Shown here: positions 1-28,024 of the stretch, in pieces
Numbering within the stretch: position 1 is the first letter of the stretch
Layout of the letters: each line of letters begins with the position of its first letter
Assembly: GCF_003231495.1 (NCBI RefSeq)
Contig: NZ_PQWO01000013.1
Span: 136,901 to 168,900, forward strand
Reading direction: 5' to 3'
Length of the DNA stretch: 32,000 nucleotides
Origin: Acaryochloris thomasi RCC1774
Lineage (GTDB): Bacteria; Cyanobacteriota; Cyanobacteriia; Thermosynechococcales; Thermosynechococcaceae
Notes under the pieces: generated by a model
Told to the model about the DNA's origin: nothing
The model's input: the letters and a program-made list of their open reading frames with translations, nothing else
Database searches by the model: none
Translations under genes and position numbers: made by a program

Positions 1-915
1 AGCTGGCTAGTGATTTCAGCGACGCCATCACCGTCAGCGTCGACAGGTGTTTCTAGCGCGTCTCTGAGCAGGAAGTTATTTTTCCATGGACCTGCACCTT
101 CAGCGTATCGTTGACTGATCACCTGCAAAAATTCAGGGTTATCGAGGTCGCTGTAGAGCGTGTCCTCAGACAGCGGATTTTCAGCAGCATCAAGGAATTC
201 CTGGCCATAGATTTCCACTAGATTATTGCGCTGCTGCACATTAAAGCGGATATCAAAAGGCACCGAGAACGTCTCATCAGGATTTGCGCCATCGGTGGCA
301 TTTCCATAGAGCTGCACGAGGGGAATATCACCAAGATCTTCGGCATCCAGCATCGCTTGAAGTTCGATCAGGTTCTGAAATTCAAAGGATTGAATAAAGA
401 TCCGATTGGGGTCAGTAAAGCCAGTTTCTTGGAGTGTATCAATGAGTTTCTCCTCTAAAGAAAGTCCCTGGAGATCAAAGAAGGTAGGATGCTTTGTTTC
501 AGGGTAGATACCCACGGCTCGGCCAGTCTCAGCCTCAACTTCTTGAACTAGCTCAATAACTTCCTGGAACGTGGGAATTTCGAAGGCATCATTGAAATCT
601 TGAGAGCGGAAATTGCGGGACTGAACGGCACGAAGCTGCTTGATCTCAGCGAGGGTAAAATCCTCAGCGAAGTAAGCTGTTGTTTCAACGCCATCCAGAA
701 ACTTTGTAGACATCCGTTCAGAACCGAAGACCTCAGCGACGTTGGTGGTGTCGTCCAGGATCGGTTCATGACGGGCAATGAGAACACCGTCTTTGGTGCT
801 GACCAAATCTGGTTCGATGAAGTCTGCGCCTTGTGCGATCGCAACTCGATAAGCCTCAAGCGTATGCTCAGGCAAAACACCGCTAGCTCCCCGGTGACCA
901 ATCACAATGGGATCT
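1..915 (-). other. Glycerophosphodiester phosphodiesterase (GlpQ/UgpQ, GDPD) domain, truncated by the window edge
   Basis: PIVIGHRGASGVLPEHTLEAYRVAIAQGADFIEPDLVSTKDGVLIARHEP (translated by hand from 781-910) closely parallels the E. coli GlpQ N-terminal catalytic block HRGASGYLPEHT...GADYLEQDLVMTKD. Confidence 0.85.
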
Positions 916-3900
916 TGACTATTAAGCGTATTGAGTTCTACTGGATTGGGGGTCGGAATCGGGGCATCCAACAACGTCCCGTTCGCACCAAAGTGGAGCA
1001 GATAGGGACCAAACTCATCACCGACGTAGATGTCACCATTGCTGCCAATGACGAAGGATTCAATATCAAAGTCAGCCCCGGTGAGCAAACGCTCGGTCGT
1101 GTCTCCGTTTTGGATATCGAAGGGAATCAGGCCATTGGGATCGCTGAGCTGAATAAAATCTTCAATCTCAACACTGCCGTCGCCCCCTTCAGAACCGACA
1201 AAACTGGGGTCAGCCCTATAGAGTCTGAGAAGGTAATCAGCACTGTTTTCTTGAGCGCCGAAACCATTGTCAGACAAAAACCAGAAGCTGCCGTCTCTGT
1301 CAGCAAACTGAACACCACTAAAGCCCTGGACAGGCTGCCCTTCAAAAGGACCGGTGCGGCCATTAGCATCAATAGGGTTACCCTCACCGTCATCGTTTCC
1401 GGCAGGTGGCCCTTCAGCAAAGGTATCGGCAGGCAGGGAAGCAAAGCCAACCAACTCCGAGCTCGGCGCGTCGGGTGCCACTCCAAACAGCGTTTGATAT
1501 GCCACCCGATAAATATCAGTGTTGTCTGTCGTGGCTGGCAGTAGGTCTGCGTTTAGACCATAGGTTTTGGAGACAATCCCTCCGTTAACGTCAGAATCAG
1601 TAGCCCAGGCAACGCCAAACTCAAACGTATCGCCGTTCGCATCAGGAGCCCCAGTCACAAATGGTTCAAAGATATCAGTGCTGAAACCAGGCACGTCATT
1701 GCTACCGTCAACATCATCGACTTGGACCAGTGTGCCGTCGGCTTCATCACCAAAGGCAGCCAATTCGGCTTGAGTCCGAAGTGTTAGCCCAGAATCAGGC
1801 AGCTCTGGATCAAGTCCAAATCCATCAATAGGCACATCATCAACCTCTAGCCCCCCTGCGTCAGAATCTGCAGCCGTAATCACCAAGGTGTTGGGATCAG
1901 TATTATCAACAAAATCAAGAGCAACACCAATTGCCTCATCCGCACGCAGGGCTGCTTCAATGGTGCCGGCAGCATTGTTATCGTTACCAAAGTTGTCTGT
2001 TCCTTCTTCTTCCAAAGCTAAGAAGAAACCATCAGGATCGCGGTCTAGAATGGGCAGCGCCACCTGGAGCATCTCAGCAACAGTAGGTGGATTGGGATTT
2101 AGGGGCGGCTGACCGTAAAGGATTAAATCGCCATTCTCATCCACCAATCCATCTCGCCGCAGTTCGTCCTCAGAAAAGTCGTTATAGGTATCTTCAGCAG
2201 CAAAGATGCCTAACAGGCGATCGGTGGTAGTAGAATCAACGGCCAGCAGTTCCTCGCGGTCAAAAACAACTGTATAACCTGCTGCTTCAGCTTCTTCAAT
2301 CAGGTTGCGGCCGTCAGTACGCGTCCCTTCTTCGCCAAAAACACCAGTGGTTCCAACTGGCAGGTAATCGGTTTCACCGGCCCCAAGGATCACATCTGGT
2401 CGCTGATCCAAGATTTCAGCGGTAATTTCCTCCGTTTGGCCCCGATTGTCCACATCAGCCAGAAAGACGCCGGTTCCGGGTTCAGCAATAAAGCCAGAGT
2501 TAATGATACCGACTGCTTTTCCTGCGGCCTGGGCCTCTTGGGCAATGGTGGCATTCTGACCAGAGAGCGCAGTAATCTCTTGACCTCCTTCATCAACCGG
2601 CGCATCAAACCCAAAACTGCCCGAAAAGGGTTTAACACCGTAGGCGTGAACAACAGCCCCAGCGTTTGATGTAGAAACTAGACGATCTTCAATATGGCCT
2701 AGATAAACGCCCGCGTTACTCAACTGATCCCAATTCAGGCGACCATCAGTCCCTTTGGATGCAAGCCTTGCCGCCGCATAGTGGGAAGGACTGGTTCCGT
2801 CCGGATGAATGAAAATCACATTGCCAGTATCGGACGTCGGTTCTGGCGCTTCACGAGGCACGAGATCATCAGGCACGCCCTCTGGTGCATCTAAACGAAC
2901 ATCAAACAGACTCTCGTAGATTAATCGATAAATGGTTGTGTTATCGAGAGTTGCAGGTAGGCGCTCAGCCCCTTCCCCGTAAGCCTTAGAAACAATACTG
3001 CCCGCGAAGTCCGGTAGGCCTGCCCAAGCAACACCGAATTCATAGCTGTTGCCGTTGGCATCAGGAGCACTGACAAAGGGTGCGGTATCACTGCCAGTAG
3101 TCCCATCCAGCGGAACTGTAATACCGCTATCTTCTCCTGCTTCGTCCAACTGTGGCTGGGTGGTGGTGGTTCCCACCGTCGGACCGGAAACATCATCAAT
3201 CTCTAAAGCGCCTCCCGCACTGTCGGCAGCGGTGACGACAAAGGTATTAGAGTTGACGTTCTCAATAAAATCTCGGGCTACCCCAATAGCAGCATCGGCT
3301 CTTAAGGTGGCATCAATTGTGCCGCGGGCATTGTTATTGTTGCCGAAGTTGTCTGTGCCTTCTTCTTCGAGAACAATGAAAAAACCATCTTCTTCTTGAC
3401 TAAAGAGATCAAGATTGAGTGTTGCCTGCAGCATCTCGGCCACAGTGGGCGGATTGGGGTTAATGGGTGGCTGACCGTAGGTAATCAGTTCACCGTTTTC
3501 ATCGACAAGACCATCTTCAATGAGTTGTCCTTCGGGCACATCGTTGTAGGTATCATCGGCAGCAAACACACCCAAAACTCGCTCGGTATCTGCTGGAAGG
3601 CTTTCCAACTGCTCATGAGTGTAGACAACGGTGTAACCCAGTGCCTCTGCTTCTTCAATCAAGTTACGACCATCGGTGCGGGTCCCTTCTTGGCCGAAGA
3701 AACCAGTCGTTCCGATGGGTAAATAATCAATTTCACCCGCAGCCATGATTACGTTCACGCCAGATTCCAAAACCTGGGCGGTGATGCCCTCGCGATCGCT
3801 ACGGCTCTCAGCATCAGCCAGAAAAACACCCGTCCCAGGCTCAGCAACGAAACCTGAGTTAATGACGGCTGTCGGACGACCCGCAACAATGGCCTCTTCC

Positions 3901-4208
3901 AGCGCGGTTGCATTTGGAGCCGAACCAGCAACATTCTGCCCCTGTAAGGCAGCTAGAGACTGGTATTCATCACCATTTTCATCAAAGCCAAAGCTGGGAG
4001 CCACGGCCTTGATGCCGTAGGCGTGAACCACAGCGCCTGCATTAGACGTTGCCACAACCTGATCATCCAGATGCCCAAGATAGACACCAGCAGCAGGGGC
4101 TTCATCCCAATTCAAGCGACCATCGGGGCCCACTGATTCAAAACGGGCGGCTGCAAAGTGGGACGGGTCCGCACCATCTGGATGGATAAAAATGACATTA
4201 CTCGTCAT
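1..4208 (-). CDS. Giant multidomain exo-phosphoesterase, N-terminal 1402 aa only (gene runs off the left edge): 2 tandem alkaline-phosphatase-like domains + phytase-like domain + GlpQ-type glycerophosphodiester phosphodiesterase
   Basis: Absent from the ORF track because the frame never closes inside the window. Hand translation of the minus strand from ATG 4208-4206 gives MTSNVIFIHPDGADPSHFAAARFESVGPDGRLNWDEAPAAGVYLGHLDDQVVATSNAGAVVHAYGIK. The segments I translated (about 4020-4208, 3000-3400, 1441-1560, 780-910 and 1-60) are all in one open frame, ending ...RDALETPVDADGDGVAEITSQL at base 1 (4208 nt = 1402 codons + 2 nt). A GAGGTGA Shine-Dalgarno-like motif lies about 7 nt upstream of the ATG. 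The minus-strand ORFs listed in this span (548-901, 1127-1486, 2390-2653, 2921-3199) are all in a different frame. Confidence 0.93.
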   Translation of the reverse strand, partial: MTSNVIFIHPDGADPSHFAAARFESVGPDGRLNWDEAPAAGVYLGHLDDQVVATSNAGAVVHAYGIKAVAPSFGFDENGDEYQSLAALQGQNVAGSAPNATALEEAIVAGRPTAVINSGFVAEPGTGVFLADAESRSDREGITAQVLESGVNVIMAAGEIDYLPIGTTGFFGQEGTRTDGRNLIEEAEALGYTVVYTHEQLESLPADTERVLGVFAADDTYNDVPEGQLIEDGLVDENGELITYGQPPINPNPPTVAEMLQATLNLDLFSQEEDGFFIVLEEEGTDNFGNNNNARGTIDATLRADAAIGVARDFIENVNSNTFVVTAADSAGGALEIDDVSGPTVGTTTTQPQLDEAGEDSGITVPLDGTTGSDTAPFVSAPDANGNSYEFGVAWAGLPDFAGSIVSKAYGEGAERLPATLDNTTIYRLIYESLFDVRLDAPEGVPDDLVPREAPEPTSDTGNVIFIHPDGTSPSHYAAARLASKGTDGRLNWDQLSNAGVYLGHIEDRLVSTSNAGAVVHAYGVKPFSGSFGFDAPVDEGGQEITALSGQNATIAQEAQAAGKAVGIINSGFIAEPGTGVFLADVDNRGQTEEITAEILDQRPDVILGAGETDYLPVGTTGVFGEEGTRTDGRNLIEEAEAAGYTVVFDREELLAVDSTTTDRLLGIFAAEDTYNDFSEDELRRDGLVDENGDLILYGQPPLNPNPPTVAEMLQVALPILDRDPDGFFLALEEEGTDNFGNDNNAAGTIEAALRADEAIGVALDFVDNTDPNTLVITAADSDAGGLEVDDVPIDGFGLDPELPDSGLTLRTQAELAAFGDEADGTLVQVDDVDGSNDVPGFSTDIFEPFVTGAPDANGDTFEFGVAWATDSDVNGGIVSKTYGLNADLLPATTDNTDIYRVAYQTLFGVAPDAPSSELVGFASLPADTFAEGPPAGNDDGEGNPIDANGRTGPFEGQPVQGFSGVQFADRDGSFWFLSDNGFGAQENSADYLLRLYRADPSFVGSEGGDGSVEIEDFIQLSDPNGLIPFDIQNGDTTERLLTGADFDIESFVIGSNGDIYVGDEFGPYLLHFGANGTLLDAPIPTPNPVELNTLNSQDPIVIGHRGASGVLPEHTLEAYRVAIAQGADFIEPDLVSTKDGVLIARHEPILDDTTNVAEVFGSERMSTKFLDGVETTAYFAEDFTLAEIKQLRAVQSRNFRSQDFNDAFEIPTFQEVIELVQEVEAETGRAVGIYPETKHPTFFDLQGLSLEEKLIDTLQETGFTDPNRIFIQSFEFQNLIELQAMLDAEDLGDIPLVQLYGNATDGANPDETFSVPFDIRFNVQQRNNLVEIYGQEFLDAAENPLSEDTLYSDLDNPEFLQVISQRYAEGAGPWKNNFLLRDALETPVDADGDGVAEITSQ
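930..1480 (-). other. Phytase-like domain (esterase-like activity of phytase, PF13449-type)
   Basis: GQPVQGFSGVQFADRDGSFWFLSDNGFGAQENSADYLLRLY and DFDIESFVIGSNGDIYVGDEFGPYLLHFGANGTL, placed directly N-terminal of a GDPD domain as in many bacterial GDPD proteins. Recognised from memory of the family. Confidence 0.6.
1495..2830 (-). other. Alkaline-phosphatase-like domain 2 (tandem duplicate of domain 1)
   Basis: Same motif series: NVIFIHPDGTSPSHYAAAR, VSTSNAGAVVHAYGVK, PPTVAEMLQVALPIL, GFFLALEEEGTDNFGNDNNA, NTLVITAADSDAGG, GGIVSKTYGLNA. At DNA level the string ggctgaccgta occurs at 2107-2117 and 3469-3479, a 1362-bp (454-codon) register. Confidence 0.75.
2895..4208 (-). other. Alkaline-phosphatase-like domain 1 (PhoA/PF00245-like fold, non-canonical metal ligands)
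   Basis: By-eye colinearity with E. coli PhoA blocks: IFIHPDGA (D51 block), ATSNAGAVVHAYGIK (DSAASATA nucleophile block), PPTVAEMLQATLNL, DGFFIVLEEEGTDNFGNNNNA (EGxxIDxxxH block), NTFVVTAADSAGG (TADHAH block), GSIVSKAYGEGA. Borders approximate. Confidence 0.75.
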
Positions 4209-4506
4209 AGTCTTCACCTCAATCGGAGAACTAATACTCTGGGCTTATTACTAAAAGCGAAACGGACAACAGCTTTCCAAAATCACATTAAAAACTGCGA
4301 AAAGGCACTCTCAAGAGAAGAAAAAACAATATCTAAAACAAAAATTCCCAACTACATCAACTGCATCAAAGAAGAGAATCAATCATGAAATACGTGCTAA
4401 AAATGCTACGCAAAATCCAAACTCATTAAACAGGATCAAGAGATACGTAAAAATACAAGTACTCTCATATCCCTAATAAGCATAGTCTCACCATCACAGC
4501 GAAAAC

Positions 4507-4547
4507 AGGTTAAAGTCTAGTTCAAAAACCACTAAGATAAAATTAAA
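4507..4547 (-). promoter_or_regulatory. Candidate Pho box (SphR/PhoB site): four 8-bp units at exact 11-bp spacing
   Basis: Minus strand reads TTTAATTT(4547-4540) n3 CTTAGTGG(4536-4529) n3 TTGAACTA(4525-4518) n3 TTTAACCT(4514-4507). Units 1 and 4 match the cyanobacterial Pho-box unit PyTTAAPyPy(T/A) perfectly; units 2 and 3 carry core mismatches. It lies about 300-340 bp upstream of the ATG at 4208, in the gene's orientation. Confidence 0.35.
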
Positions 4548-4822
4548 TTCATAATGACACGTAGATGTATTCATAAAAACTATTTTTCATAAATTCTGTT
4601 TTTTAAGTATCTTCATTTATACAAAAAGCCATCATCTAAAAAAAGATAACGGATTTCAGCAAGAAGGAGAAATAGACTACATTTCTAGTTCGGTACACAA
4701 ATGAGTATTTATTTTTCATCTAATTTCTCTCAAGCTCAACCTCAGATTTCAGCTTAAACATCAGTTTTTTTTCTACCAACAACTCATAAGTGGTTGGCTA
4801 TTAAAACCAAGTTAGAGGCAAT

Positions 4823-4852
4823 CTACTGGAGAGCATGTTTGCTCTCCAGTAG
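4823..4852 (-). terminator. Perfect 13-bp stem / 4-nt loop hairpin, possible terminator of the 2439-aa gene
   Basis: ctactggagagca-tgtt-tgctctccagtag (4823-4835 / 4840-4852), the only strong GC-containing hairpin in the AT-rich spacer, about 350 nt downstream of the stop at 5200. No immediate U-tract on either strand. Confidence 0.35.
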
Positions 4853-5199
4853 CCTTCCGCAACAAATTAATATGCCAATCTTTCAGAGAATAATATTGCT
4901 ATATGCTTTATCAGGAGTAATAGTTAAATTAAATTCAGTGCTATGCAAAAACAGCCGATCATTTTCATTTAACTCAAGTCAAAAGGAATACTTTCATAAA
5001 AACCGACATCCACCTAATTGATCAGGCGAATTAACAACTACCTAAGGCCAGATGAATAAGAGTTTAAGAATTAGTTTCATCAAGCTGACACTAGAAGCAA
5101 TCACAAAGACTACTATTGAAATTTCATCAATTCAGACTTCTTAGAAATTCAGAAAGACATTGAGATAATACGCAGCACTGCTTCGAGGGCAGTTGACGA

Positions 5200-8100
5200 T
5201 TAAACTACGGATGAGAAGGTTTGAAAGGTCAAATCTTCTACCTCCGCAGCGACATTACTCAACACGGCAAGTTGCTGATTCTCCTCCTCAAAAACAATCA
5301 GGGTATTGCCGCCTTGAATGGAGACCCCGAGCTGATCAACGGTCAACCCATCCGATAGCCCCAGAGCATCTTGCCCCATCTCGAAGTCACGAATGAAATC
5401 TCGACCTTGACCGACTTCTAGAACAAACAGATCAGCGCCACGTCCTCCAGAGAGCAGATCACGGCCCGACCCGCCAATCAGCGTATCAGCCCCAAGGTTG
5501 CCTGCAATTTGGTCACGGTCTGCGCCTCCTGATAACAAGTCAGCTCCCCTGCCGCCAAGGATAAAATCGTTACCATTACCGCCCTCGATAACATCATCAC
5601 CGCGTCTGCCATCCAGTCGGTCAAAGCCGTTGCCGCCCAATAGAGTATCGTGGCCTGCTCCTCCTCGAATATTGTCGGAGCCATTATTGCCTAACAGGAA
5701 ATCATCACCCAACAGCCCTCGGATCACGTCGTTACCGTTCAGCCCCTCGATGGCATCTGATTCAGCAGTTCCGATCAGCACGTCGCTGAAGTTGGTGCCG
5801 GTAATCTCATTCACCTGAGGGGCATCGATCACCGTATCCTCACGGAAGTTGAGGTTCTGGATGCGAGTGTCTTCTGCTGGATCCGTTTCTGCGTCGCTGA
5901 AGGCAGGCGTCGTCGCATCATCGTCCGCCGGGAAGTTAGTGGCCAAGTACTCAGCAAGCACATCTTGCTCGGTGCCTGGATCGGCGAAGGTTGCAGCGCC
6001 AGCATCGGTCAATACATCAGGAAGATCAACACGATTAGCCTCTGGACCTGTGGGGAACGGATATCCGTCACCACCATCGGCAAGGAAATTCAGGGTCACA
6101 ATGCGGAAAGTGCGGCTGGTCTCGCCCACCAGCTCTCCGCCTTGAACCACGGTGTCGATATCGTTGCCGTCTGCATCTGTGATCGTAAGAGACTGTACTC
6201 TATCGCCAGGGTCAGCATCGGGATCGAAGCTAAATTGAACCCCAGAAATCTGAGAAAACTGACCGGGTGTAGCGCCTTCTTCAGTGGCCGCAACGCTGTG
6301 CTCAACTACCTCTAGTAGCTGATCAGCCGTCAAGGTCAGCAGCGTCAGGCTGTTGTTGAAGCGGAGAGAATTATCGATATCTAGCTGAGAAATTTGACCT
6401 TCTTCCTTGCCCGAAACAGGGTTAGCCTGTGGCGGTAACTCCTTACCGTCGGCGTCGATTTCGCCGATGGGTGCCCGAATCCCGCCGCCGTTCTTAAGAG
6501 AAAGAACAACGGTCTCGTCAAAGGCCTGTGCCGCTGCAAGGTTGGCATCGGCAGTCAAGTTTCCAATATTGGTCTCTTCGGTGCGGACGCTCTCTCGCCG
6601 ACCGTCGATAAAGACATCGGTTTGACCAAAGACGTTGCCGTCTTGCTCTGCTACGACATCCGAGACGGCATTGGTAAGCTGCTGAACTCCGGTGGCTTTT
6701 GTCGAAGATGCGATGGCCGAAGGCCGGCCTTCGGCCATCGCATCTTCGACACCCTCAGTCCCGTATACCTCATTGACCACCTCATCTGTGGTGGCATAGG
6801 CGCCACTCACCTCAGAATCAACGCTATCGGTAATCACGTTACCTTCAGCATCAAACTCTAAAACCAGACGACCCACATAGCTATATTCACCGTCTGTACT
6901 GACGATCAGCACAGGGTTGCCGTTGGCATCGGTGGTCTCAAAGGGATAGTCCCCATCAGCTACATCGCCGGGTCGGAGCGTATCTGTTGCATCGGCCAAG
7001 AGCGTATCGGAGCCGCCGGCAATAATCACATCCACACCGTCTAAAAGACCCGCTAACTCCTGCTCCAGTGCAATTTGCTGCAGGTGAGAGACCAAGACGA
7101 TCTTGTTGATGCCCAGGTCACGGAGGCGATCCACCTCGGGCTGTAGGGTCTCCGCTAGGGCCACCATGTTGTTCTCTTGGGGACCAATGACGGTTGTGCC
7201 CGTGGGTGAAGAAATACTGTCCAGAATCTGGGTGGTGGCACCAATGACGCCGATTTGTTCACCACCTTCGTCAATAATCGTCGAGGGAGCAATCTTCGGT
7301 ACTTCAGTCCCTGCAAGGGATTGCTCCGGCCCCGTGCGGAAGTCTGTATTCGTCAGGATCTCATTGGTGAACAGCTCACTAAGCACTTCATCACCGGAGA
7401 AATCAAGGTTTGCTGAGAGGTAAGGGAATAGAGCGCCGACATTGCGATCGTCTTCAAGACCTGGATCTCTGAAATCAGGCGCAATGATATCGGCCAGGGT
7501 ATCCGAACCGAGGTCAAATTCGTGGTTACCGATTGCTGAGGCATCGAAACCTATCAGGTTCATGATCGCGATATCGACTCGGCCACCGCCTTCGCGCAAA
7601 CCAGCGTAGAAATCTTCAATCGCATCGCCATCCACATCCGCCGGCAAGTTGAAGAGGCCGTTGTAGAGGTCGTTAAAGATGCCGCTATCTCGGAACGCAG
7701 CCTGATCGCCTGCGGCATTAAAGAAGGGACCGGCGAGATAGTTATCGCCTGCCGAAAGCGTGATGGAGTTCTCAAACTGATCTTCAAAATTATCAATGAG
7801 AGCCGCAAAATTGGGGGCGCGCCCAATGGCATCGACTCCCCCCTCTAAATCCGATGCATGGAGAATCTGCAGCGTGAAGTTACTGGCTGGTGCATCAGTG
7901 CCGATATTCAAGCGACTCACAAGAGGTTCGTGGTCACTGGCGACCACCGTATCGTTAAATTCAATTGCATTATCGTCACGGGTAAAGTCGTTATTAACGT
8001 GAACAATGTCAAATTTCGCCTCTGGGAGTAGCGAATCGCTGACAAACGAGTGGTCCAGGACCTGACTGTTGCCATCGAAAATGAAGGTTGAGGCATCTCC

Positions 8101-11100
8101 ACCGGCCTCAGCTTGGGAGACGAGGTTCGTCAAAACCTGCTCATCTCCGGTACCCGGCAGAATCTCAGCAAGGTCATTCGTGAACTGAAAGGTATTCAGA
8201 TCACCCGTCACAACGATATTGGCATCAGACTGCGCGGCCAACGCAGCATCAACATACTCGTTAATCGCCAGGGATTGAGCTTCCCGCTCTGCTTCAGCAG
8301 CTTGCACAAAGGGCTGAGTGCCACCAAAGATAGGGGTCGATCCAAACCGAGAGGAGAAATGATTATTAATGACCGTGACGGCCTCACCATTGAAGGAGAA
8401 GGTTCCTGCAAGAGGAATGCGGCTACCAGCGAGGGCGTCAGGATTGCTGACACCGGCTGATTCTAGATTGGCAGGTGTCAAAGCTTCGGTAGAGTCGAGC
8501 GAGACCCGTTCGGGGTTATAGAGGAAAGCATTGCGGATATTGCCGCCGGGAACGCCACCCTGTGGAATCGTACTTTCGTCGGCGCTGGAGTCGGCAAAGA
8601 CGTCAAAAAACTCGTAGGTGGGGCCGCCTGAAGTTGCGATCGCATCGACTAAATCCTGCAGAGTCTGAGAAGCGTCACTGACCGCAATGTTATCTCCTCC
8701 ACTTGCCCCATCGTTATCTTGGATTTCCTGGAGCGCAATAATGTCAGGTGAACCAAGATTAGCCACAATCTGCTCGGCCAGCAGCGATCGTTGTCGCGCA
8801 TCGGGATCGGTGACATCATCTTCCACCGCCGCTGTACTGGTCAAATTCAAGACGTTGTAGCTGGCAATCGTCAGCTGATCCTCGCTCCCCGTTAGCGTTG
8901 TGACTTCCTGCTCCAGGCCACCGGGGGTAACGACATTGACGGGTCCTGTCACATTAACCTCGAAGTTACCGAAGCTGTAACCGACCACTCCCGTTACATC
9001 TCCAAGCTGATCACCCACGTTTAAAGCCGGTGGTATCTCTTCTCCAGAAATTGTGGGATCAAACTGGATCTGAACCCGCTCTGGATTCTGATCGCCAGTA
9101 TTGTCAGGACCAGAGTTGAGGGGAATACCGCCCCGACTGTTGGGCGGATCGTCAGACGTTGCCCCCTGGTTAGGAAGCGTAAAGGCTTCTGCAGAGAAGT
9201 CACCAAAGACCCGCGTCGGTGAGACGGTGACCGCATCTTCAATCGTGACCCGCTGACCTTCAATACTTTCAAAGAAATCAATGGCATCATTTTCTGGATC
9301 AAAAGTATTCGCCGCATCGTCGGCTGTATCCCGTAGATTCACCGGCAGCTCATCGTCACTAATGACGGTTGTATTCGACGGTGACCGGCCACTCTGCCTA
9401 ATCACCACAGCTTCTGGCAAAGCATTACCACTGGAAAGAACCGTAATCTCAGAAGATGCAATCTGAGTAATGGAGAGGTTACCGGTATCGGCCCCACCTG
9501 GAATAAATTCGCCCACGGTGCCAGCAACCTCTAGCTGATCACCCACGGCAATGTCAGGGGTAGACCCAGTGAACACAAAAATGCCATCTGAAGTGTTGTC
9601 GTTGCCGTCGCCGGTGGGGTCTTGCAGGTAGAAACCATTGAAGGCCACTGCGGTCACAACACCACTCGTCGTCACATCGCTATCCACCAGCGTCGAGACA
9701 TGGCCCTCTCCCTGAATCGTGGAGATAGAGGTTAGGCCGTCACCATCGCCTAAATCATCAATCTCGAAAATCGTAGTACTCCCGCTGACTTCGTTACCGA
9801 CGACAAGTAAAGGAGAACCGTTGGGACTGTCTTCAGCAGAAATAAACAGCAATCCCTCAGGGCCAAGATCGCCTGCCGCAGGGTTCAGTGTGCCGTCGGG
9901 TAGCTCCACATCAACGGTGAAGTCACGATTGTTGATGTACTGAACAAACTCAGAGTTTGCCGGATCAGAGACATCGAACACCACAATGCCACCAATCCGC
10001 TCTAGACCGATAAAGGCGTAGGTGCGATCGCCCACAACGCCCACCGCGAGGCCTTCTGGCTCTGGCCCACTGTCATTGCTACGGCTATCAAAACTCCCAT
10101 TTTCATCATTATCGGAGTTGAAGGCTTCTGGAAGTAACTCTGCCGTAATCCGTTCGAGCTGGTCCCCGCTGTCAAACACTAAATTGCCCAAGGCATCGCG
10201 GATAGAAAAAGAACGGGAGCCAAAGGCAAATAGCTGATCGAAGTCGCCATCACCATCGATGTCCCCATCTACGCTGGAAACCTCTAGACGCCCCAAGTTC
10301 TCTTCGAGCTGGAGATTGGCAGCATCAGGAAACGCCTCTGGGTCGAGTGTCAAATCTTCGACACGCTCAATATCGGTGAGATCGTCAAAACTATCTCGTC
10401 CATCACCTTCGTTAGCTGTGATGAAGAAGGTCTGACCATTGGCATCAAAAGAAGCAATGGTGTCGGGCTGGAACAATCCAAAAACCGGAAAATTATCAAT
10501 ATTGATACCCCCATCTTCATCGCTAGGATCTAAGCCATTGGTGGCTTCATCGAAGCTGATTAGCCCCAGTTGAGTGGATGTGCCAGGGCCTTCATAGTCG
10601 TTGTCGTTAATGACGGCAAGGCGGCCATCCTCAAGGAGAGCCAAGCCTTCGGCTTGAGCACTAGGACTAAAACCAAGGGACGGTAAATTCGTGACTTGAA
10701 TCTTGTTAACAGGTTGAATGCCTGCTGCGACAAGTTCATCAGGGGAGAGCTGCTCTATTGTGGTGCCTTCAGTTGCGTTGGATAAATCGGTCCCCAGAAT
10801 ATTTGTGGCTCCCTGGAGGTCAATCTGAAAAATGCGTTGCTGGGCTGTATCGATGTCTTCGTTATCGCGTTCAATGACATAAAATTGTCCATTTCCTGCG
10901 AACACCACATCGCCAATGCGATCGACTTCAGCATCACCAAAGTCGATCCCAGAATCTGTGGTGATCAATGATGGCGTTTGCAGAACGTAGACAAATTCCT
11001 CCACTGGCTCTCCAGTCGTTGGATCAATGCCTAAAATCCGCAGGATGCTAGATCCGTTACTGGTGTCAGTATCGGGGTTAGAAAGTGGCGTTTGAATAAA

Positions 11101-12519
11101 GCCGTACACGATGTTGCGTTCATCATCAAAAGCGATGCCTTCGAACCCTCGGTTGTTGCGACGGTTCAAGTAAACTTCAGGGAGTGTTTCAGTCCCAAAC
11201 GTTCCGGCGGTCGCACCTGATTCGTCTTGGGCGGCAAAGCCAGTGGGCACAAATCGATCAATCAATACGCCTTCAGAGGAAAAGACATTGATAGAGGGTC
11301 CCTGTTCGTCAGCAACAAAGAGGTTACCGTTCGGGGCTCTGACAATGCCTTCGCTGTCTAGGCCAAAAGGGTCGTTGGGCAGTGGCTCACCTGTAGCCGG
11401 ATCAACGGGTACTTCAAAAAATCCTGGAATGTTTGGCAGTCCTGTGATGGGAACTTGGGCCCCGTCTACCTCACGGGTCAGGCCCAGGCGATCGACAACA
11501 GAAACCTGACCAGAGGCTTCATCTAACTCGAGTGTGAGGACGGTGACCTGAAGATCGGGAACCAAGAAAGGGCGATTGCTTGAATCAGGATCGGGCGTAT
11601 CAATCGTGCCACTAACGGGGCCACGATCATTAATAGCCAAGAACCGCGGATTACCGTTCTCTGGATTGACGCCATCGAAGGCGAGTCCCGACAGCCCACC
11701 TAGAAAAATGGGATTGCCATCAGCATCCGTTCCGATTTGAAAGGAGTCTGTTGTTAGGTCAGGAATATCAAAGGTTTCGAGCTGCGGCAATCCTCGACTA
11801 AAGTCTGTAACGCCCAGGGGTAGAATATCCACCAACTCGGCAGTTTCAAGATTGACCACTGCAATGGCATTGTTCTCTTGCAGCGTCACAAAGGCAGTGC
11901 TGCCATCGGGAGCGACAGAGATAAATTCAGGCTCTAAATCTTGAGCAACGGTGCGACCGGGGAAGATGCGAACACCGTCACCTCGCAAATCGTTCTCGCG
12001 TCCATTAAAGGCAGAGAAATCAGCCGTTGCTACGGTTGCACCCTCTACTCCCTCAGTTAGATCGATGATACTTATAGACCCTTCGGGATCGAAAGTCAGC
12101 AAATCATCGTCATCACCAACGGGTTCGCCCTCATTCGCCACTACTAGCCTGGTACCATTCGGCGTAAAGGTGACGGCGTCTGGCAAAACGCCGACTCCAA
12201 CGACATTCAAGAGGCTTAGGTCAGCTGCATCAAAGAAGGCAACCGTTCCAGTTTCGGTGGCTGTGACATCCTCTAGAGCGACAGCAACAACTCCATTGGC
12301 AACGGCAACGCTGTTAGGTCCACCGCTGAGGCTGACGTCAATCGCGTCAATGAGGGTCGGACGGGTTGGGTCTGAGAGATCAAGAACATCAATACCGTTA
12401 CTATCACCATTGACAACAAAGAGTCTTTGACTAACTGAGTCAAAGGCCACAATTTCAGCGGCGCTTTCATCGAAGACACCCGTCGCAAATGTACCAATTT
12501 GATTGAGTTCAATTGCCAT
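5200..12519 (-). CDS. Giant (2439 aa) RTX-type mosaic exoenzyme: split choice-of-anchor-I-like beta-propeller with nested phytase-like domain + ExeM/NucH-type EEP nuclease + UshA-type 5'-nucleotidase + RTX repeats
   Basis: ORF track 5200..12519. No signal peptide (MAIELNQIGTFATGVFDES...). Motifs read in the translation: AAEIVAFDSVSQRLFVVNGDSNGIDVLDLSDP, TFFITANEGDGRD, GPEPEGLAVG..TYAFIGLERIGGIVVFDVSDP (propeller); NRGFEGIAFD, AEGLALLEDGRLAVINDNDY (phytase-like); ISTIQGEGHVS..GVVTAVAFNGFYLQDP..TSDGIFVF (NucH N-module); IASYNVLNL, IIALQEIQDNDG, VINNHFSS, VTGDLNT, ASDHEPLV (EEP); ILHASDLEGG, SAGDNYLAG, GNHEFD, VLVSHLQ, KNGGGIR, LNFLADGGDGYPF (5'-nucleotidase); about 12 GGxGxDxUx units. By my reading the protein has no Cys, no Trp and only 8 Lys. 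Confidence 0.95.
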   Translation of the reverse strand: MAIELNQIGTFATGVFDESAAEIVAFDSVSQRLFVVNGDSNGIDVLDLSDPTRPTLIDAIDVSLSGGPNSVAVANGVVAVALEDVTATETGTVAFFDAADLSLLNVVGVGVLPDAVTFTPNGTRLVVANEGEPVGDDDDLLTFDPEGSISIIDLTEGVEGATVATADFSAFNGRENDLRGDGVRIFPGRTVAQDLEPEFISVAPDGSTAFVTLQENNAIAVVNLETAELVDILPLGVTDFSRGLPQLETFDIPDLTTDSFQIGTDADGNPIFLGGLSGLAFDGVNPENGNPRFLAINDRGPVSGTIDTPDPDSSNRPFLVPDLQVTVLTLELDEASGQVSVVDRLGLTREVDGAQVPITGLPNIPGFFEVPVDPATGEPLPNDPFGLDSEGIVRAPNGNLFVADEQGPSINVFSSEGVLIDRFVPTGFAAQDESGATAGTFGTETLPEVYLNRRNNRGFEGIAFDDERNIVYGFIQTPLSNPDTDTSNGSSILRILGIDPTTGEPVEEFVYVLQTPSLITTDSGIDFGDAEVDRIGDVVFAGNGQFYVIERDNEDIDTAQQRIFQIDLQGATNILGTDLSNATEGTTIEQLSPDELVAAGIQPVNKIQVTNLPSLGFSPSAQAEGLALLEDGRLAVINDNDYEGPGTSTQLGLISFDEATNGLDPSDEDGGINIDNFPVFGLFQPDTIASFDANGQTFFITANEGDGRDSFDDLTDIERVEDLTLDPEAFPDAANLQLEENLGRLEVSSVDGDIDGDGDFDQLFAFGSRSFSIRDALGNLVFDSGDQLERITAELLPEAFNSDNDENGSFDSRSNDSGPEPEGLAVGVVGDRTYAFIGLERIGGIVVFDVSDPANSEFVQYINNRDFTVDVELPDGTLNPAAGDLGPEGLLFISAEDSPNGSPLLVVGNEVSGSTTIFEIDDLGDGDGLTSISTIQGEGHVSTLVDSDVTTSGVVTAVAFNGFYLQDPTGDGNDNTSDGIFVFTGSTPDIAVGDQLEVAGTVGEFIPGGADTGNLSITQIASSEITVLSSGNALPEAVVIRQSGRSPSNTTVISDDELPVNLRDTADDAANTFDPENDAIDFFESIEGQRVTIEDAVTVSPTRVFGDFSAEAFTLPNQGATSDDPPNSRGGIPLNSGPDNTGDQNPERVQIQFDPTISGEEIPPALNVGDQLGDVTGVVGYSFGNFEVNVTGPVNVVTPGGLEQEVTTLTGSEDQLTIASYNVLNLTSTAAVEDDVTDPDARQRSLLAEQIVANLGSPDIIALQEIQDNDGASGGDNIAVSDASQTLQDLVDAIATSGGPTYEFFDVFADSSADESTIPQGGVPGGNIRNAFLYNPERVSLDSTEALTPANLESAGVSNPDALAGSRIPLAGTFSFNGEAVTVINNHFSSRFGSTPIFGGTQPFVQAAEAEREAQSLAINEYVDAALAAQSDANIVVTGDLNTFQFTNDLAEILPGTGDEQVLTNLVSQAEAGGDASTFIFDGNSQVLDHSFVSDSLLPEAKFDIVHVNNDFTRDDNAIEFNDTVVASDHEPLVSRLNIGTDAPASNFTLQILHASDLEGGVDAIGRAPNFAALIDNFEDQFENSITLSAGDNYLAGPFFNAAGDQAAFRDSGIFNDLYNGLFNLPADVDGDAIEDFYAGLREGGGRVDIAIMNLIGFDASAIGNHEFDLGSDTLADIIAPDFRDPGLEDDRNVGALFPYLSANLDFSGDEVLSELFTNEILTNTDFRTGPEQSLAGTEVPKIAPSTIIDEGGEQIGVIGATTQILDSISSPTGTTVIGPQENNMVALAETLQPEVDRLRDLGINKIVLVSHLQQIALEQELAGLLDGVDVIIAGGSDTLLADATDTLRPGDVADGDYPFETTDANGNPVLIVSTDGEYSYVGRLVLEFDAEGNVITDSVDSEVSGAYATTDEVVNEVYGTEGVEDAMAEGRPSAIASSTKATGVQQLTNAVSDVVAEQDGNVFGQTDVFIDGRRESVRTEETNIGNLTADANLAAAQAFDETVVLSLKNGGGIRAPIGEIDADGKELPPQANPVSGKEEGQISQLDIDNSLRFNNSLTLLTLTADQLLEVVEHSVAATEEGATPGQFSQISGVQFSFDPDADPGDRVQSLTITDADGNDIDTVVQGGELVGETSRTFRIVTLNFLADGGDGYPFPTGPEANRVDLPDVLTDAGAATFADPGTEQDVLAEYLATNFPADDDATTPAFSDAETDPAEDTRIQNLNFREDTVIDAPQVNEITGTNFSDVLIGTAESDAIEGLNGNDVIRGLLGDDFLLGNNGSDNIRGGAGHDTLLGGNGFDRLDGRRGDDVIEGGNGNDFILGGRGADLLSGGADRDQIAGNLGADTLIGGSGRDLLSGGRGADLFVLEVGQGRDFIRDFEMGQDALGLSDGLTVDQLGVSIQGGNTLIVFEEENQQLAVLSNVAAEVEDLTFQTFSSVV
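5418..5749 (-). repeat. About 12 tandem RTX (hemolysin-type Ca-binding) nonapeptide repeats, followed by a roughly 70-aa C-terminal tail
   Basis: EGLNGNDVIRGLLGDDFLLGNNGSDNIRGGAGHDTLLGGNGFDRLDGRRGDDVIEGGNGNDFILGGRGADLLSGGADRDQIAGNLGADTLIGGSGRDLLSGGRGADLFVLE. The 27-nt periodicity is visible in the DNA. The antisense ORF 5498-5818 shows the mirrored P/S-rich repeat. Confidence 0.9.
6040..7880 (-). other. UshA-type 5'-nucleotidase module (metallophosphoesterase + 5'-nucleotidase C-terminal domain)
   Basis: NFTLQILHASDLEGG at about 7841-7880; GNHEFD; VLVSHLQ; VDVIIAGGSDTLL at about 6990-7040; RIVTLNFLADGGDGYPFP at 6051-6105. Confidence 0.8.
7905..9735 (-). other. ExeM/NucH-type extracellular nuclease module (OB-like N-part + endonuclease/exonuclease/phosphatase domain from about 8876)
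   Basis: ISTIQGEGHVSTL at about 9690-9735; DQLTIASYNVLNLT at 8841-8880; ASDHEPLVSRLNIG at about 7900-7940 (all hand-located on the minus strand). The catalytic EEP residues appear intact (E in ALQEIQ, NH in NNHF, D-N in GDLNT, DH in SDHEP). Confidence 0.8.
9745..10539 (-). other. Beta-propeller, C-terminal half (choice-of-anchor-I-like)
   Basis: GLDPSDEDGGINIDNFPVFGLFQPDTIASF..FFITANEGDGRD..LFAFGSRSFSIRDALGNLVFDSGDQLE..SRSNDSGPEPEGLAVG..LERIGGIVVFDVSDPANSEFVQYINNRD. Confidence 0.6.
10540..11790 (-). other. Nested phytase-like (PF13449-type) domain inserted in the propeller
   Basis: About 417 aa between LGVTDFSRG and GLDPSDEDGGINIDNFPVFGLFQPD (the latter at about 10481-10536), containing LSGLAFDG, DSEGIVRAPNGNLFVADEQGP, NRGFEGIAFDDERNIVYGFIQTPL, DRIGDVVFAGNGQFYVIERDN, AEGLALLEDGRLAVINDNDY. 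Confidence 0.6.
11791..12519 (-). other. Beta-propeller, N-terminal half (choice-of-anchor-I-like)
   Basis: Ends at ...ILPLGVTDFSRG (hand-located at about 11791-11820). In family members as I remember them this motif is followed directly by GLDxSDxDG. Confidence 0.6.
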
Positions 12520-13159
12520 GGAAAACCTTTACCTATAGAAAAAGAAAAATTGAATTAACTGAATGCGCGATCAGATTCGCTTTTCCAACGCCGTTTTTCA
12601 GCACCGAACGGGAAAAGTTAAAACTAGACAACAACGTCCAAGTCAGAGACAGAGCAAGCTATCAGAAGCTCCAAACACTCCAGCAAAGAGACTCCTGCCG
12701 TCACAGAACCTTATTTCAGGCTCACGCTGCAGAGTGAGACTGAAGCAGGAAAGTAGAGAATCAGCGATTGCAGGCAAACAACCAGGAGGCTGATTAGAAA
12801 ACCTCAAAATATTTGTTAGTTCTTCAACTAATGAGCTGCAGCTAAATAAACGCTCAAGATTTACGCTGCTTAACACTCAGACTTGACCGCAGCCGAAATC
12901 CCCTTGATTAGATTCCCAAGGATATGTAAATACCAGGACAAGAAGAGATTAAGGCCAGCAGTATTTTCGTTTAAAGTTGGCTTAAGTCAGTCAATGCAAA
13001 GCTGAAAGTTCTGGGCAAGCAGCCTGAAGCAATCATGTTCAAAACGCAGCCGCCCCTAAATCTAAGCCATGCTTATTTTGACGGCGAAGCTGTCTAGCAA
13101 GAACAATTAGACCAGACAAGAGGGATGCAATAGAGAGTCTTTATGCTGAAATCTAAAAA

Positions 13160-13232
13160 TGGAGCTAAGCGGATTCGAACCGCTGACCCCCTGCATGCCA
13201 TGCAGGTGCTCTACCAACTGAGCTATAGCCCC
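13160..13232 (-). tRNA. tRNA-Ala (anticodon GGC)
   Basis: Reverse complement = GGGGCTATAGCTCAGTTGGTAGAGCACCTGCATGGCATGCAGGGGGTCAGCGGTTCGAATCCGCTTAGCTCCA (73 nt). It has a 7-bp acceptor stem with the G3:U70 alanine identity pair, D-arm GCTC/GAGC, anticodon stem CCTGC/GCAGG with loop ATGGCAT, T-arm AGCGG-TTCGAAT-CCGCT and discriminator A73. The 3' CCA is not encoded (TTTTT follows). Confidence 0.93.
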
Positions 13233-13441
13233 AAGGAATATTCATCATGCCTTGAAAGCTGACATGCCGTCAAGAATGTGTCTAATCCTCGCCCCTCTCA
13301 ACACAAACAATAGCTTTTGTAAACGATTTAGATAAGAAAAGCTAATAAGCTTCATCAAAACAACTGATGTTTTTGGCTATGATTGAGGCATCCAGATGCG
13401 GGTGATGCATCATCTGCATGTTGTCACTGAGGAAGCAAGCC

Positions 13442-19610: not shown

Positions 19611-20471
19611 CTACAGAACTTTTAGACTTTTCAAACTCTGTCGAGTCACTGCGGCTCTAGTACTCAGATCTGCCTCATCGCGAATGTTGATATTGGTAGC
19701 GAAGAAGTAAGTATTGTCATCTTGTTCCACATAGCCAACATACCAACCGATCTGGGATTCGGATGCCCAGCCGGTTTTGGCACGCATTGTATAGTCTGGG
19801 GTTCGCTCCACGATCATGATGTTTTTTACGGTTGCGATCGCATCATCTGAGAAGGGCAATTCATTTTTATGTAAGCGTCGCAGAAACTGAATTTGCTGGT
19901 GGGGCGTGATCCGTAAATCGCCCGTTAGCCAGAAGGTATCAATATCGTCTGCCTCTCCGATGGCTTGGTTGCCGTAGCCAACTTTAGCAATCCACTGCTG
20001 CATTCGTTCGTAGCCAATGCGACGAGCTAAGACCTGATAGAACCAGACTGCTGATACCTGAATAGCTGTCTGCATATTGAGATCTCGATTCCATGCTGGA
20101 ATACTCCGTTCTACTCCGTCCCAAGTCAAAATTGAGAGTTCGTTGTCAATCACCCCAGTTTCTAGAGCGATCAGCGAGTTTAGAACTTTAAAGGTGGAGG
20201 CGGGTAAAAAGGGGGTCACATTCCGCTCAGGGTTGTGCTGATAGGTGCGGTCTCGCTCCAGGTCATAGATTAAGATCGAGCCTTTCACACCCAAGTCTCG
20301 GAAATGCTGAGCAAAGTCAGGCTGTGTGAACTTGTTTTGCTGAGTCACCAAGGGTGCTGCAGATGCAAGAATGGACGAATCTAGGAAAGGTGACAGTGTG
20401 ATGCAAATGCTTGCGATCACACAGTTAAGCCCATAAAAGATATTTTTCATCTTGTCTTGTCTACGCTCCAT
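19611..20471 (-). CDS. Class D (OXA-type) beta-lactamase, secreted
   Basis: 286 aa (alternative start MKNIFYG at 20450). All class D boxes are present: STFK (ASTFKV hand-located at 20183-20200), SAV, YGN, KTG, WYVGY. It has a hydrophobic N-terminal signal-like segment. Confidence 0.88.
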   Translation of the reverse strand: MERRQDKMKNIFYGLNCVIASICITLSPFLDSSILASAAPLVTQQNKFTQPDFAQHFRDLGVKGSILIYDLERDRTYQHNPERNVTPFLPASTFKVLNSLIALETGVIDNELSILTWDGVERSIPAWNRDLNMQTAIQVSAVWFYQVLARRIGYERMQQWIAKVGYGNQAIGEADDIDTFWLTGDLRITPHQQIQFLRRLHKNELPFSDDAIATVKNIMIVERTPDYTMRAKTGWASESQIGWYVGYVEQDDNTYFFATNINIRDEADLSTRAAVTRQSLKSLKVL

Positions 20472-23193: not shown

Positions 23194-23895
23194 CTAGGCC
23201 GCACTGACATCCAAAGCAGGTGTAGGGACTAAATATCCATCTTCCATGTATACAATTCGGTCGGCAATGTCCAAAATGCGGTTGTCGTGGGTGACTAGCA
23301 AAATAGTGCATCCCTGCTCCTGAGCAAGACGCTGCATGATCTCTACGACATCGCGACCTGACTTTTTATCTAGGGCGGCGGTGGGTTCGTCGGCCAGGAT
23401 AATTTTAGGGTGACTGACGAGGGCACGGGCAATCGCAACCCGCTGTCGCTGTCCACCGGAGAGAGCGTCGGGATAATAGTTGATGCGATCTGCTAAACCA
23501 ACGGCGGTGAGCATATTGGATGCGATCGCATCTAAATCCTGTTCTAAAAAAGAATCATGCAGCTCCAAAGACATCCGAACGTTTTGCTTGGCCGTCAGAA
23601 AGCTCAACAGATTGTGAGCTTGAAAGATATAGCCAATGTTGCAGCGAAGCTTACCAAGCTGCTGCTTTGAAGCCCCCAAAATCTCTTGACCGAGAATTGT
23701 GAGGCTACCGCTTTGAGCGGCTCTCAGGCCACCCAACAGCGTTAGTAGTGTTGTTTTGCCCGAACCCGAGGGACCGGTGAGGATGACGATTTCGCCAGCC
23801 CTGATCTCTAGATCAATATCAAATAAGACCTGCTTCTGGAGCTGACCTTCACCAAAATGGTGGCTGAGTTGATGAGCAGTAATGATGGCAGACAT
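23194..23895 (-). CDS. DevA/MacB-type ABC exporter ATP-binding protein
   Basis: Start chosen at MSAIITAHQLSHHFG (cat at 23893-23895); the ORF-track extension to 24018 has no family support. Walker A GPSGSGKTT, signature LSGGQRQRVAIARAL, Walker B ILADEPTAALD. Confidence 0.9.
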   Translation of the reverse strand: MSAIITAHQLSHHFGEGQLQKQVLFDIDLEIRAGEIVILTGPSGSGKTTLLTLLGGLRAAQSGSLTILGQEILGASKQQLGKLRCNIGYIFQAHNLLSFLTAKQNVRMSLELHDSFLEQDLDAIASNMLTAVGLADRINYYPDALSGGQRQRVAIARALVSHPKIILADEPTAALDKKSGRDVVEIMQRLAQEQGCTILLVTHDNRILDIADRIVYMEDGYLVPTPALDVSAA

Positions 23896-24115
23896 AGTGT
23901 TCCTTTCACAGAAACTTAGAACAGCGACACAAGCGAAGAGGTTGCTTTGAAGTGAGCAAGATATCTGAATTGGCTCCCTGAATTTCCCACCAGTGAGGGA
24001 CTTTGGGACTGGAGTCAATATAAGGAGCAGCCATATGGTTTAACGGAAGGGTGGACGGTCTCTCCCCCAATTCTGGAGGGAGACGGGGGGCGAATGCAGT
24101 GCTTTCTTGGAATCC

Positions 24116-24838: not shown

Positions 24839-24881
24839 AATAGCTTGATACCAATGGTGTACAAGGGATAAAACTAAGACA

Positions 24882-27993: not shown

Positions 27994-28024
27994 GGACAAC
28001 GATGTAAACAACCAGAGCATTTTA

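Follow-up and report, generated by a model that had tools for sequence, protein, structure and literature searches.

Two giant RTX-tailed proteins of Acaryochloris thomasi as candidate multi-enzyme scavengers of organic phosphorus

Marine primary producers are sustained by dissolved organic phosphorus, and surveys of its use tally phosphatase genes family by family, a metal cofactor being assumed for each. What role, then, is to be assigned to a locus in which several such families are joined on the same polypeptides? The stretch of DNA analysed here, 32,000 nucleotides of the marine cyanobacterium Acaryochloris thomasi RCC1774 (contig NZ_PQWO01000013.1, positions 136,901 to 168,900; hereafter the window), opens with two such giant genes, named A and B in the following. 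We read their products as two modular exo-enzymes that release phosphate from dissolved organic phosphorus, are exported by type I secretion and stand under Pho control, and we give this reading a probability of roughly 0.7.

By open reading frame (ORF) calling, gene A occupies positions 5200-12519 of the minus strand, with its ATG at 12519 and a product of 2439 amino acids. Gene B lies on the same strand with its ATG at 4208 and is open at the left window edge, leaving 1402 codons inside. These coordinates agree with the preliminary description of this DNA, made from the letters alone, in which two co-oriented minus-strand genes filled about 11.5 of the first 12.5 kb. Both products are already deposited at NCBI from A. 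thomasi RCC1774: that of gene A as 'Trifunctional nucleotide phosphoesterase protein YfkN' (P0001, 100% identity and coverage), and that of gene B as 'Glycerophosphodiester phosphodiesterase, periplasmic' (P0121, 100% identity over the first 1402 residues). Since the 3' end of gene B lies outside the window, the C-terminal part of its product was read from P0121, which has a full length of 1874 amino acids and supplies at the protein level, with 12 RTX units and a tail, the end that the preliminary description had left partial.

Modules were identified by Pfam and NCBIfam profile searches, with Pfam matches listed at E ≤ 0.01. The product of gene A starts with a choice-of-anchor-I (COA-I) propeller that is split by a nested phytase-like propeller, and continues with an ExeM/NucH nuclease, a 5'-nucleotidase, RTX repeats and a C-terminal tail:

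11767-12465, minus strand: N-terminal half of the COA-I propeller (residues 19-251; PF22494, profile positions 13-244)
10594-11703, minus strand: 'phytase-like' PF13449 propeller nested in COA-I (residues 273-642; profile positions 3-284 of 284, about 160 bits)
9760-10578, minus strand: C-terminal half of the COA-I propeller (residues 648-920; PF22494, profile positions 226-489)
7906-9669, minus strand: ExeM/NucH-type extracellular nuclease of the EEP fold (residues 951-1538; NF033681, profile positions 1-545 of 546)
6058-7878, minus strand: 5'-nucleotidase-like domain, a metallophosphoesterase half and a substrate-binding half (residues 1548-2154; PF02872)
5422-5799, minus strand: 14 RTX nonapeptide units (residues 2241-2366; PF00353)
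5203-5421, minus strand: C-terminal tail of 73 residues, the presumed uncleaved type I secretion signal (residues 2367-2439)

The COA-I module belongs to its family by the NF038117 score (568 bits against a cutoff of 300). The nuclease segment matched the solved structure 9sf9 over residues 9-614 of the query (E = 5.5e-75), and the 5'-nucleotidase scored 89-94 bits with PF02872 (5_nucleotid_C; gathering cutoff 23.6) and matched CD73 at E = 8e-36. Weak Pfam matches to Mur_ligase and Metalloenzyme fell below their cutoffs and were disregarded. Residues 1-930 were modelled with AlphaFold as an all-beta structure, with a predicted local distance difference test (pLDDT) score of 77.8 and a predicted template-modelling (pTM) score of 0.77. 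A fold search with this model against the PDB returned generic double beta-propellers only (query-normalised TM score 0.13-0.17), and such matches say nothing on function and were rejected as a clue to it. The modules named for this protein in the preliminary description were thus recovered; the N-terminal COA-I module had been overlooked, and the RTX repeats, put there at about 12, number 14.

Gene B encodes two alkaline phosphatase (AP) domains in a row, followed by a phytase-like domain with a glycerophosphodiester phosphodiesterase (GDPD) nested inside it, the 12 RTX units and the tail, so that both genes hold one domain nested within another. Inside the window the following parts were placed:

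3-4208, minus strand: gene B, first 1402 of 1874 amino acids
3216-4199, minus strand: AP domain 1 (residues 4-331, PF00245; the fold extends to about 455)
1845-2822, minus strand: AP domain 2 (residues 463-788, PF00245; the fold extends to about 910)
933-1337, minus strand: N-terminal part of the phytase-like PF13449 domain (residues 958-1092; profile positions 1-112 of 284)
3-896, minus strand: GlpQ-type GDPD nested in the phytase-like domain (residues 1105-1402, cut at the window edge; PF03009)

The C-terminal part of the phytase-like domain resumes after the GDPD, at residues 1467-1652 of P0121 (profile positions 98-284). PF00245 matched in two stretches at 244 bits (cutoff 24.4) and PF13449 twice across A and B, at 157 and 181 bits. 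The GDPD scored 124-163 bits with PF03009 and matched the E. coli GlpQ structure 1t8q at E = 9e-39; its score with the NCBIfam GlpQ equivalog, 158 bits, is below the cutoff of 254. With these matches all seven hydrolase modules claimed in the preliminary description were recovered by profile scanning.

The two AP domains are 60% identical to each other, and a direct repeat with a spacing of 1359 nt is visible in the DNA across this region. The duplication is present in 116 of 120 gene B homologues. Because like-numbered domains of distant homologues are equally or slightly more similar than unlike-numbered ones, we read it as old. A model of residues 1-950 (pLDDT 85.2, pTM 0.87) found classical AP chains as its best fold matches, E. 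coli AP first, with target-normalised TM scores of 0.67-0.69 and a Foldseek probability of 1.0. The high pTM of the two-domain chain suggests a fixed packing between the domains, which would probably make the two folds in one chain the intramolecular equivalent of the AP homodimer.

How could proteins of this kind leave the cell? Neither ORF can be extended upstream, and near the N-terminus (50 residues) the 12-residue Kyte-Doolittle mean does not exceed 1.05 in A and 0.57 in B, in agreement with the earlier claim that neither protein starts with a signal peptide. There is no cysteine among the 4313 residues of the two proteins, and their composition is acidic (D+E 17-18%, K+R 4-5%); the 36 homologues inspected have similar N-termini and no or one cysteine. 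Aligned over 201 residues, the RTX-plus-tail cassettes of the two proteins share 55% identity (E = 3e-58), and they differ by exactly two repeats. A block of RTX units (14 in A, 12 in B) with a tail and no signal peptide is what is found, in sequence, in substrates of type I (RTX) secretion. Type I secretion with Ca2+-driven folding outside the cell therefore fits the lack of a signal peptide and of cysteine, the acidic composition and the RTX-plus-tail cassette. The window also holds, at 23194-28020 on the minus strand, a TetR regulator followed by devB, devC and devA-type genes of a tripartite ABC exporter, which score above the curated cutoffs, with an ORF of 272 amino acids carrying DUF4336 between devC and devA. 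Acaryochloris is not known to form heterocysts. This exporter was considered as the secretion system and rejected, the DevA, DevB and DevC models being passed while models of type I secretion matched weakly.

The function of the N-terminal module of gene A was approached through phages. In a tblastn search of residues 1-930 against phage genomes the matches were solely to genes annotated 'phoA: alkaline phosphatase' of Synechococcus myoviruses (nine records from six phages, E down to 1e-11), in two pieces flanking the insertion. In phage S-SM2 this phoA is a single gene of 420 amino acids that adjoins pstS (locus record L085, 1396-2658), and its product passes PF22494. By BLASTP the two halves of the module align to it separately (E = 2e-19 and 3e-11), residues 4-262 of A with PhoA residues 36-258 and residues 767-919 with 301-419. 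This ties the auxiliary 'alkaline phosphatase' of cyanophages, at the level of sequence, to the propeller family of COA-I and MSP130. According to the literature, the phoA of picocyanobacteria is distantly homologous to the 'atypical PhoA' (PhoAaty) of Synechococcus PCC 7942 (PMC11098088). Relatives of PhoAaty have been reported from algae, marine animals, cyanobacteria and proteobacteria (PMC4548154), and the activity of the algal ones is restored by Ca2+ (PMC4548154, PMC6156274). Given the phage alignment together with this literature, we take the N-terminal module of A to be of the atypical-PhoA type; the step from phage phoA to PhoAaty is taken from the literature (PMC11098088, PMC4548154) and not from alignment.

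Evidence for regulation was sought upstream of the genes. A Pho box was defined by 8-bp units separated by 3-bp linkers, with consensus CTTAACCT, and at least three tandem units served as the criterion for the Pho regulon; sites were ranked by a best-3-of-4 periodic score against first-order Markov shuffles and by comparison with orthologous promoters. The upstream features are as follows:

12924-12986, minus strand: candidate Pho boxes upstream of gene A, six 8-bp units in an 11-bp register, -467 to -405
4507-4547, minus strand: candidate Pho boxes upstream of gene B, four 8-bp units in an 11-bp register, -339
4209-5199, minus strand: spacer between A and B, 991 bp, AT-rich, 33% GC
5008-5031 and 4629-4652: terminator-like hairpins in this spacer, downstream of gene A
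4209-5199 and 12520-13158 of the window, 8647-10000 of locus record L002 and 8553-9352 of locus record L005: long upstream regions in A. thomasi and in A. marina MBIC11017

The six units upstream of A read CTTAAGCC / TTTAAACG / ATACTGCT / CTTAATCT / CTTGTCCT / ATTTACAT and are collinear with an array upstream of the A. marina orthologue, CATAATCA / CTTAACCG / CTAGAAGC / CTTAATCT / GTTTAGCT / CTTTACAT. The four units upstream of B (TTTAATTT, CTTAGTGG, TTGAACTA, TTTAACCT) form the highest-scoring four-unit periodic site in the whole window, with a score reached by 0.2% of Markov shuffles; for the Pho-box-like arrays upstream of A, B and both A. marina orthologues this share is 0.2-2.2%. A strict scan for three consecutive Pho boxes had its single best match inside secD (16347) and is so uninformative alone. 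The arrays are suggestive of Pho control, not proof of it, and they strengthen the role in phosphorus scavenging proposed in the preliminary description, which the module content already fits. Their experimental precedent is the phoA-nucH operon of Synechocystis (PMC1906773).

The regions that hold these arrays are themselves conspicuous, long (0.64-1.35 kb), AT-rich and non-coding upstream of A, B and both A. marina orthologues, with a GC content of 33-36% in three of them and 43% for A. thomasi gene A, while the genes have about 52%. A tRNA-Ala(GGC) gene lies at window positions 13159-13233 (minus), directly upstream of the promoter region of gene A and on the strand of A and B. It was the sole match of an Rfam scan of the window, which found no riboswitch or small RNA in the two long AT-rich upstream regions.

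The regulatory evidence also bears on a different reading, in which the enzymes are active and serve a role other than phosphorus supply, such as remodelling of extracellular DNA in biofilms, defence against foreign DNA or scavenging of nucleosides and carbon, with no Pho control. ExeM-type nucleases are tied to extracellular DNA and biofilm in Shewanella. The title of PMC6002478 credits A. thomasi with a distinctive lifestyle, and the case for Pho boxes is one of consensus matching alone. DNA removal by itself would, however, hardly explain the combination of modules, seven of the eight catalytic-type ones being phosphate-releasing or phosphodiester-cleaving. Moreover, AP, GDPD and 5'-nucleotidase are classical Pho-regulon functions, and A. 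marina has conserved the periodic array that precedes gene A. We regard a role outside phosphorus supply as improbable.

If A and B are enzymes of phosphate release, a sequence of events may be proposed. Each gene probably has its own promoter, on which the SphS/SphR (PhoR/PhoB) switch would act through the Pho boxes upon phosphorus starvation; because of the terminator-like hairpins downstream of gene A, the two are expected to be transcribed separately. A type I secretion system would probably recognise each protein by the C-terminal RTX-plus-tail cassette common to both and export it in the unfolded state, and binding of Ca2+ would drive folding outside. The ExeM/NucH-type nuclease of A would cut extracellular nucleic acid, its 5'-nucleotidase-like domain would dephosphorylate the products, and the atypical-PhoA-type COA-I propeller with its nested PF13449 domain would attack other esters. 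In B, the two AP folds of one chain, probably a pseudo-dimer, would act beside the GlpQ-type glycerophosphodiesterase nested in the PF13449 propeller.

Several observations weigh against this reading, and a number of them concern the catalytic sites. In a survey of 238 AP domains from the 120 homologues, the residue equivalent to H331 of E. coli PhoA is Asn in all 238 and that equivalent to H370 is Ser in 237, H412 aligns with Phe or Val, K328 is replaced by Asn and R166 stands opposite a gap; the canonical Zn1/Zn2 histidine ligands and Arg166 of PhoA are accordingly missing. In the 5'-nucleotidase of A, motif I reads D1557-Q-E1559 (His to Glu) and motif V AGGS (His to Gly), so that two of the three histidine ligands of CD73/UshA are replaced and the dimetal set DxH, GD, GNH(E/D), H, GHxx is incomplete; both changes are invariant in 17 full-length relatives. 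Because these canonical metal ligands are altered, the AP and 5'-nucleotidase activities are not to be assumed, and either domain could have another activity, another metal, or none. The two phytase-like domains claimed in the preliminary description are present as PF13449 domains, and phytate hydrolysis was over-read from the family name: PF13449 ('Esterase-like activity of phytase') is without demonstrated activity, no other phytase family was among the listed Pfam matches, and no solved structure was found to match the phytase-like regions by sequence. The nuclease, despite its end-to-end match, scores 166 bits with NF033681, under the NCBIfam cutoff of 300, and the tandem AP was compared with E. 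coli AP at the level of single chains. No HlyB-type exporter genes (HlyB/HlyD/TolC) were found in the 32-kb window, whose only ABC exporter is the DevBCA-type one (23194-27440); the type I secretion proposed in the preliminary description is reasonable from the repeats, the tail, the lack of cysteine and the acidity, and lacks partner genes here. The Pho-box units are individually imperfect and come from a consensus scan in AT-rich DNA, they lie distally, 340-470 bp from the start codons, and the signal is mixed in other genomes. Finally, our literature search found no biochemical study of any full-length member of the family.

Are the modules then mostly degenerate? A and B could instead be structural or adhesive RTX proteins of a surface or S-layer-like kind that bind Ca2+ or ligands and for which phosphorus scavenging is not the main role. 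The loss of canonical histidine ligands from the AP and 5'-nucleotidase domains and the uncharacterised state of PF13449 speak for this alternative, and further support may be drawn from the many RTX proteins encoded by Acaryochloris genomes (PMC3034196) and from the relatives of COA-I, among them the biomineralisation protein MSP130 of animals such as the sea urchin, a seven-bladed COA-I propeller with Ca2+ sites and no known enzymatic role (PMC11878542). The pattern of conservation argues otherwise. The AP nucleophile S102 and the equivalents of D51, E322, D327 and D369 are invariant in the 238 domains; the EEP motifs of the nuclease are complete (ASYNV, LQEIQD, NNHF, GDLN, LDH, SDHEP); the catalytic and Ca motifs of the GDPD are conserved with respect to 1t8q (HRGASGxLPEHT, E.DLV.TKD, H(E/D)); and the 5'-nucleotidase retains GD, GNHEFD and H1812, with GNHEFD and the remaining motifs invariant. 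Modules of this set also co-occur with PhoD in other genomes, phage phoA adjoins pstS, and candidate Pho-box arrays precede both genes. A structural or adhesive role is on these grounds decidedly improbable.

Within the reading of A and B as phosphate-releasing enzymes, the altered ligands may themselves be informative. In the 238 AP domains four histidines outside the canonical set are invariant or nearly so (235-238 domains), in the motifs FIHPDG, PSH, YLGH and AVVHAYG (gene B residues 9, 17, 46 and 62 in domain 1; 468, 476, 505 and 521 in domain 2), at positions occupied by I, E, Y and W in E. coli PhoA, and they are candidate replacement metal ligands. Because these histidines stand at non-canonical positions, the AP site appears rewired and not histidine-free; an 'all-oxygen, His-free' site was considered and rejected on this account, and the metal is not inferable from the residues. 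A further proposal would make the two proteins a zinc-sparing extracellular toolkit, in which AP and 5'-nucleotidase dispense with Zn2+, which is scarce, and work with Ca2+ or Mg2+, both plentiful in seawater, or with a metal site built anew, and in which the tandem AP provides an intramolecular dimer, separate chains being unable to assemble into one when exported unfolded and diluted in seawater. We consider this joint proposal doubtful, if conceivable. In A. marina MBIC11017 the gene B orthologue (L002, 2284-8645) adjoins a cluster of zinc-homeostasis type, with cobW, an ALAD/hemB paralogue, znuA, znuC, znuB and a cation-efflux gene, an intriguing neighbourhood for AP domains without canonical zinc-binding histidines.

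Is the pair itself something new? Among 8000 candidates scored, 1313 homologues of A and 506 of B were found at E ≤ 1e-10. When module orders were compared in the 120 best homologue clusters of A, 32 had exactly its order, 84 showed COA-I interrupted by the phytase-like domain, and some 30 further arrangements of these modules were seen. Near-full-length relatives extend beyond the cyanobacteria, for instance to a Rhodovibrionaceae genome (55% identity over residues 1-2433). In Hydrococcus sp. Prado102 (L009, 5633-14503) a single ORF of 2956 amino acids combines AP-AP-Phytase[GDPD]-EEP nuclease-5'-nucleotidase without COA-I, and in strain SU2 three adjacent genes carry Phytase + COA-I, AP-AP and nuclease-5'-nucleotidase. 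Six large co-oriented genes stand in a row in Cyanobacteria bacterium UBA5018 (L075, 67-23974), including Phytase/GDPD (apparently two split ORFs), AP-RTX, an RTX protein, COA-I[Phytase]-5'-nucleotidase (2771 amino acids) and a PhoD of 1490 amino acids with DUF4114; from its gene content this cluster looks like a dedicated exo-phosphatase island.

The preliminary description had known of no system with this degree of fusion in a tandem gene pair and had taken A and B as a functionally coupled and co-selected unit, not as chance neighbours. The first of these claims is not supported: both proteins are annotated at NCBI, the order of A recurs in the clusters counted above and the Hydrococcus ORF fuses modules of both types. 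As a genomic object the locus belongs to a large and widespread family and had been annotated before. Of the second it may be said that the genes are co-oriented and adjacent with a secretion cassette in common, and that modules of the A and B types are likewise neighbours, or joined in a single polypeptide, at the three further cyanobacterial loci just described (Hydrococcus, SU2 and UBA5018). The second Acaryochloris genome that was compared, A. marina MBIC11017, nevertheless has its A orthologue at about 1.87 Mb and its B orthologue at about 3.10 Mb, some 1.2 Mb apart. A survey of synteny, as had been recommended, found a B-like neighbour within 10 kb at only 3 of 80 A-like loci, leaving 77 without one, and in A. 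thomasi itself the 991-bp spacer with its terminator-like hairpins and its own Pho-box-like site comes between the genes. A co-selected unit is thus very improbable, and the pair in A. thomasi represents one arrangement out of a module set that has been widely shuffled, not a dedicated conserved operon.

Two features of the window lie apart from these genes. A class D (OXA-type) beta-lactamase of 286 amino acids is encoded on this marine cyanobacterial chromosome at 19611-20471 (minus; NF012161, 295 bits, cutoff 250), and an N-terminal fragment of a DDE_Tnp_1_4 transposase (28151-28489, minus, 112 amino acids) is the remnant of an insertion sequence.

What the locus adds to the understanding of organic phosphorus use is the manner of packing. 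Benthic and epiphytic cyanobacteria place atypical PhoA, classical-fold PhoA, NucH, 5'-nucleotidase and GlpQ modules into giant and apparently type I-secreted proteins, and the shuffling of modules amounts to an experiment of nature, from which it may be learned what fusions of enzymes a secreted protein will tolerate. Of most interest are the old AP duplication and the replacement, throughout the family, of canonical histidine ligands in two folds that classically depend on zinc. If the altered ligands change the use of cofactors, arguments on zinc-phosphorus co-limitation that build on cyanobacterial 'PhoA' would need revision, and were the zinc-sparing proposal true, marine cyanobacterial 'PhoA' now counted as zinc-dependent, as in Halothece (PMC6713934), would be misassigned.

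Each part of the two proteins has a counterpart among known systems. Like E. coli PhoA, a Zn2Mg homodimer, gene B has the AP fold and keeps Ser102, D51, E322, D327 and D369; unlike it, the fold is duplicated in one chain and shows H331N, H370S, K328N, Phe or Val at H412 and R166 unaligned. ExeM/Xds-type nucleases and UshA/CpdB nucleotidases are separate proteins with Sec-dependent export. The logic of passing from extracellular DNA to nucleotides to phosphate is shared between gene A and these enzymes (Shewanella ExeM, Vibrio cholerae Xds, UshA/CpdB), whereas in gene A nuclease and nucleotidase are fused and RTX-tailed and the nuclease scores below the NCBIfam family cutoff. As in the type I-secreted RTX exoenzymes, serralysins and RTX lipases, a C-terminal GGxGxDxUx block, an uncleaved tail, an acidic composition and the lack of signal peptide and cysteine are seen; A and B differ in being much larger, in carrying many enzymes and in having no adjacent genes for a cognate ABC transporter, membrane-fusion protein and TolC. 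Such proteins were foreshadowed by Linhartova et al. (2010), whose review predicted about 20 RTX nucleases, nucleotidases or phosphodiesterases, four phytases and five phosphatases and put the number of RTX proteins in A. marina at 28 (PMC3034196), and the terms RTX, type I secretion, fused and multi-domain are absent from a 2024 review of cyanobacterial phosphorus acquisition (PMC11665274). With PhoAaty, known from Synechococcus PCC 7942, picocyanobacteria, cyanophages and eukaryotic algae, gene A shares a COA-I module that aligns with S-SM2 phoA, whereas here an entire PF13449 domain is inserted into the propeller, which is one module among several. In the phoA-nucH operon of Synechocystis sp. 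PCC 6803 (sll0654-sll0656), which is SphR-regulated, induced by phosphorus starvation and preceded by Pho boxes of tandem 8-bp units with 3-bp linkers (PMC1906773, PMC11665274), phoA-type and NucH functions are likewise joined, as the COA-I and NucH modules of gene A are behind a Pho-box-like array, a likeness drawn from the published description of sll0654 and sll0656. There the two are separate genes side by side, whereas gene A carries both and a 5'-nucleotidase on one RTX-tailed chain, and the second gene, B, adds classical-fold AP and GDPD. In Synechocystis, too, the targets of PhoB include a gene of type I secretion and an RTX protein, the latter being more abundant than any other exoprotein when phosphorus is limiting (PMC11126600).

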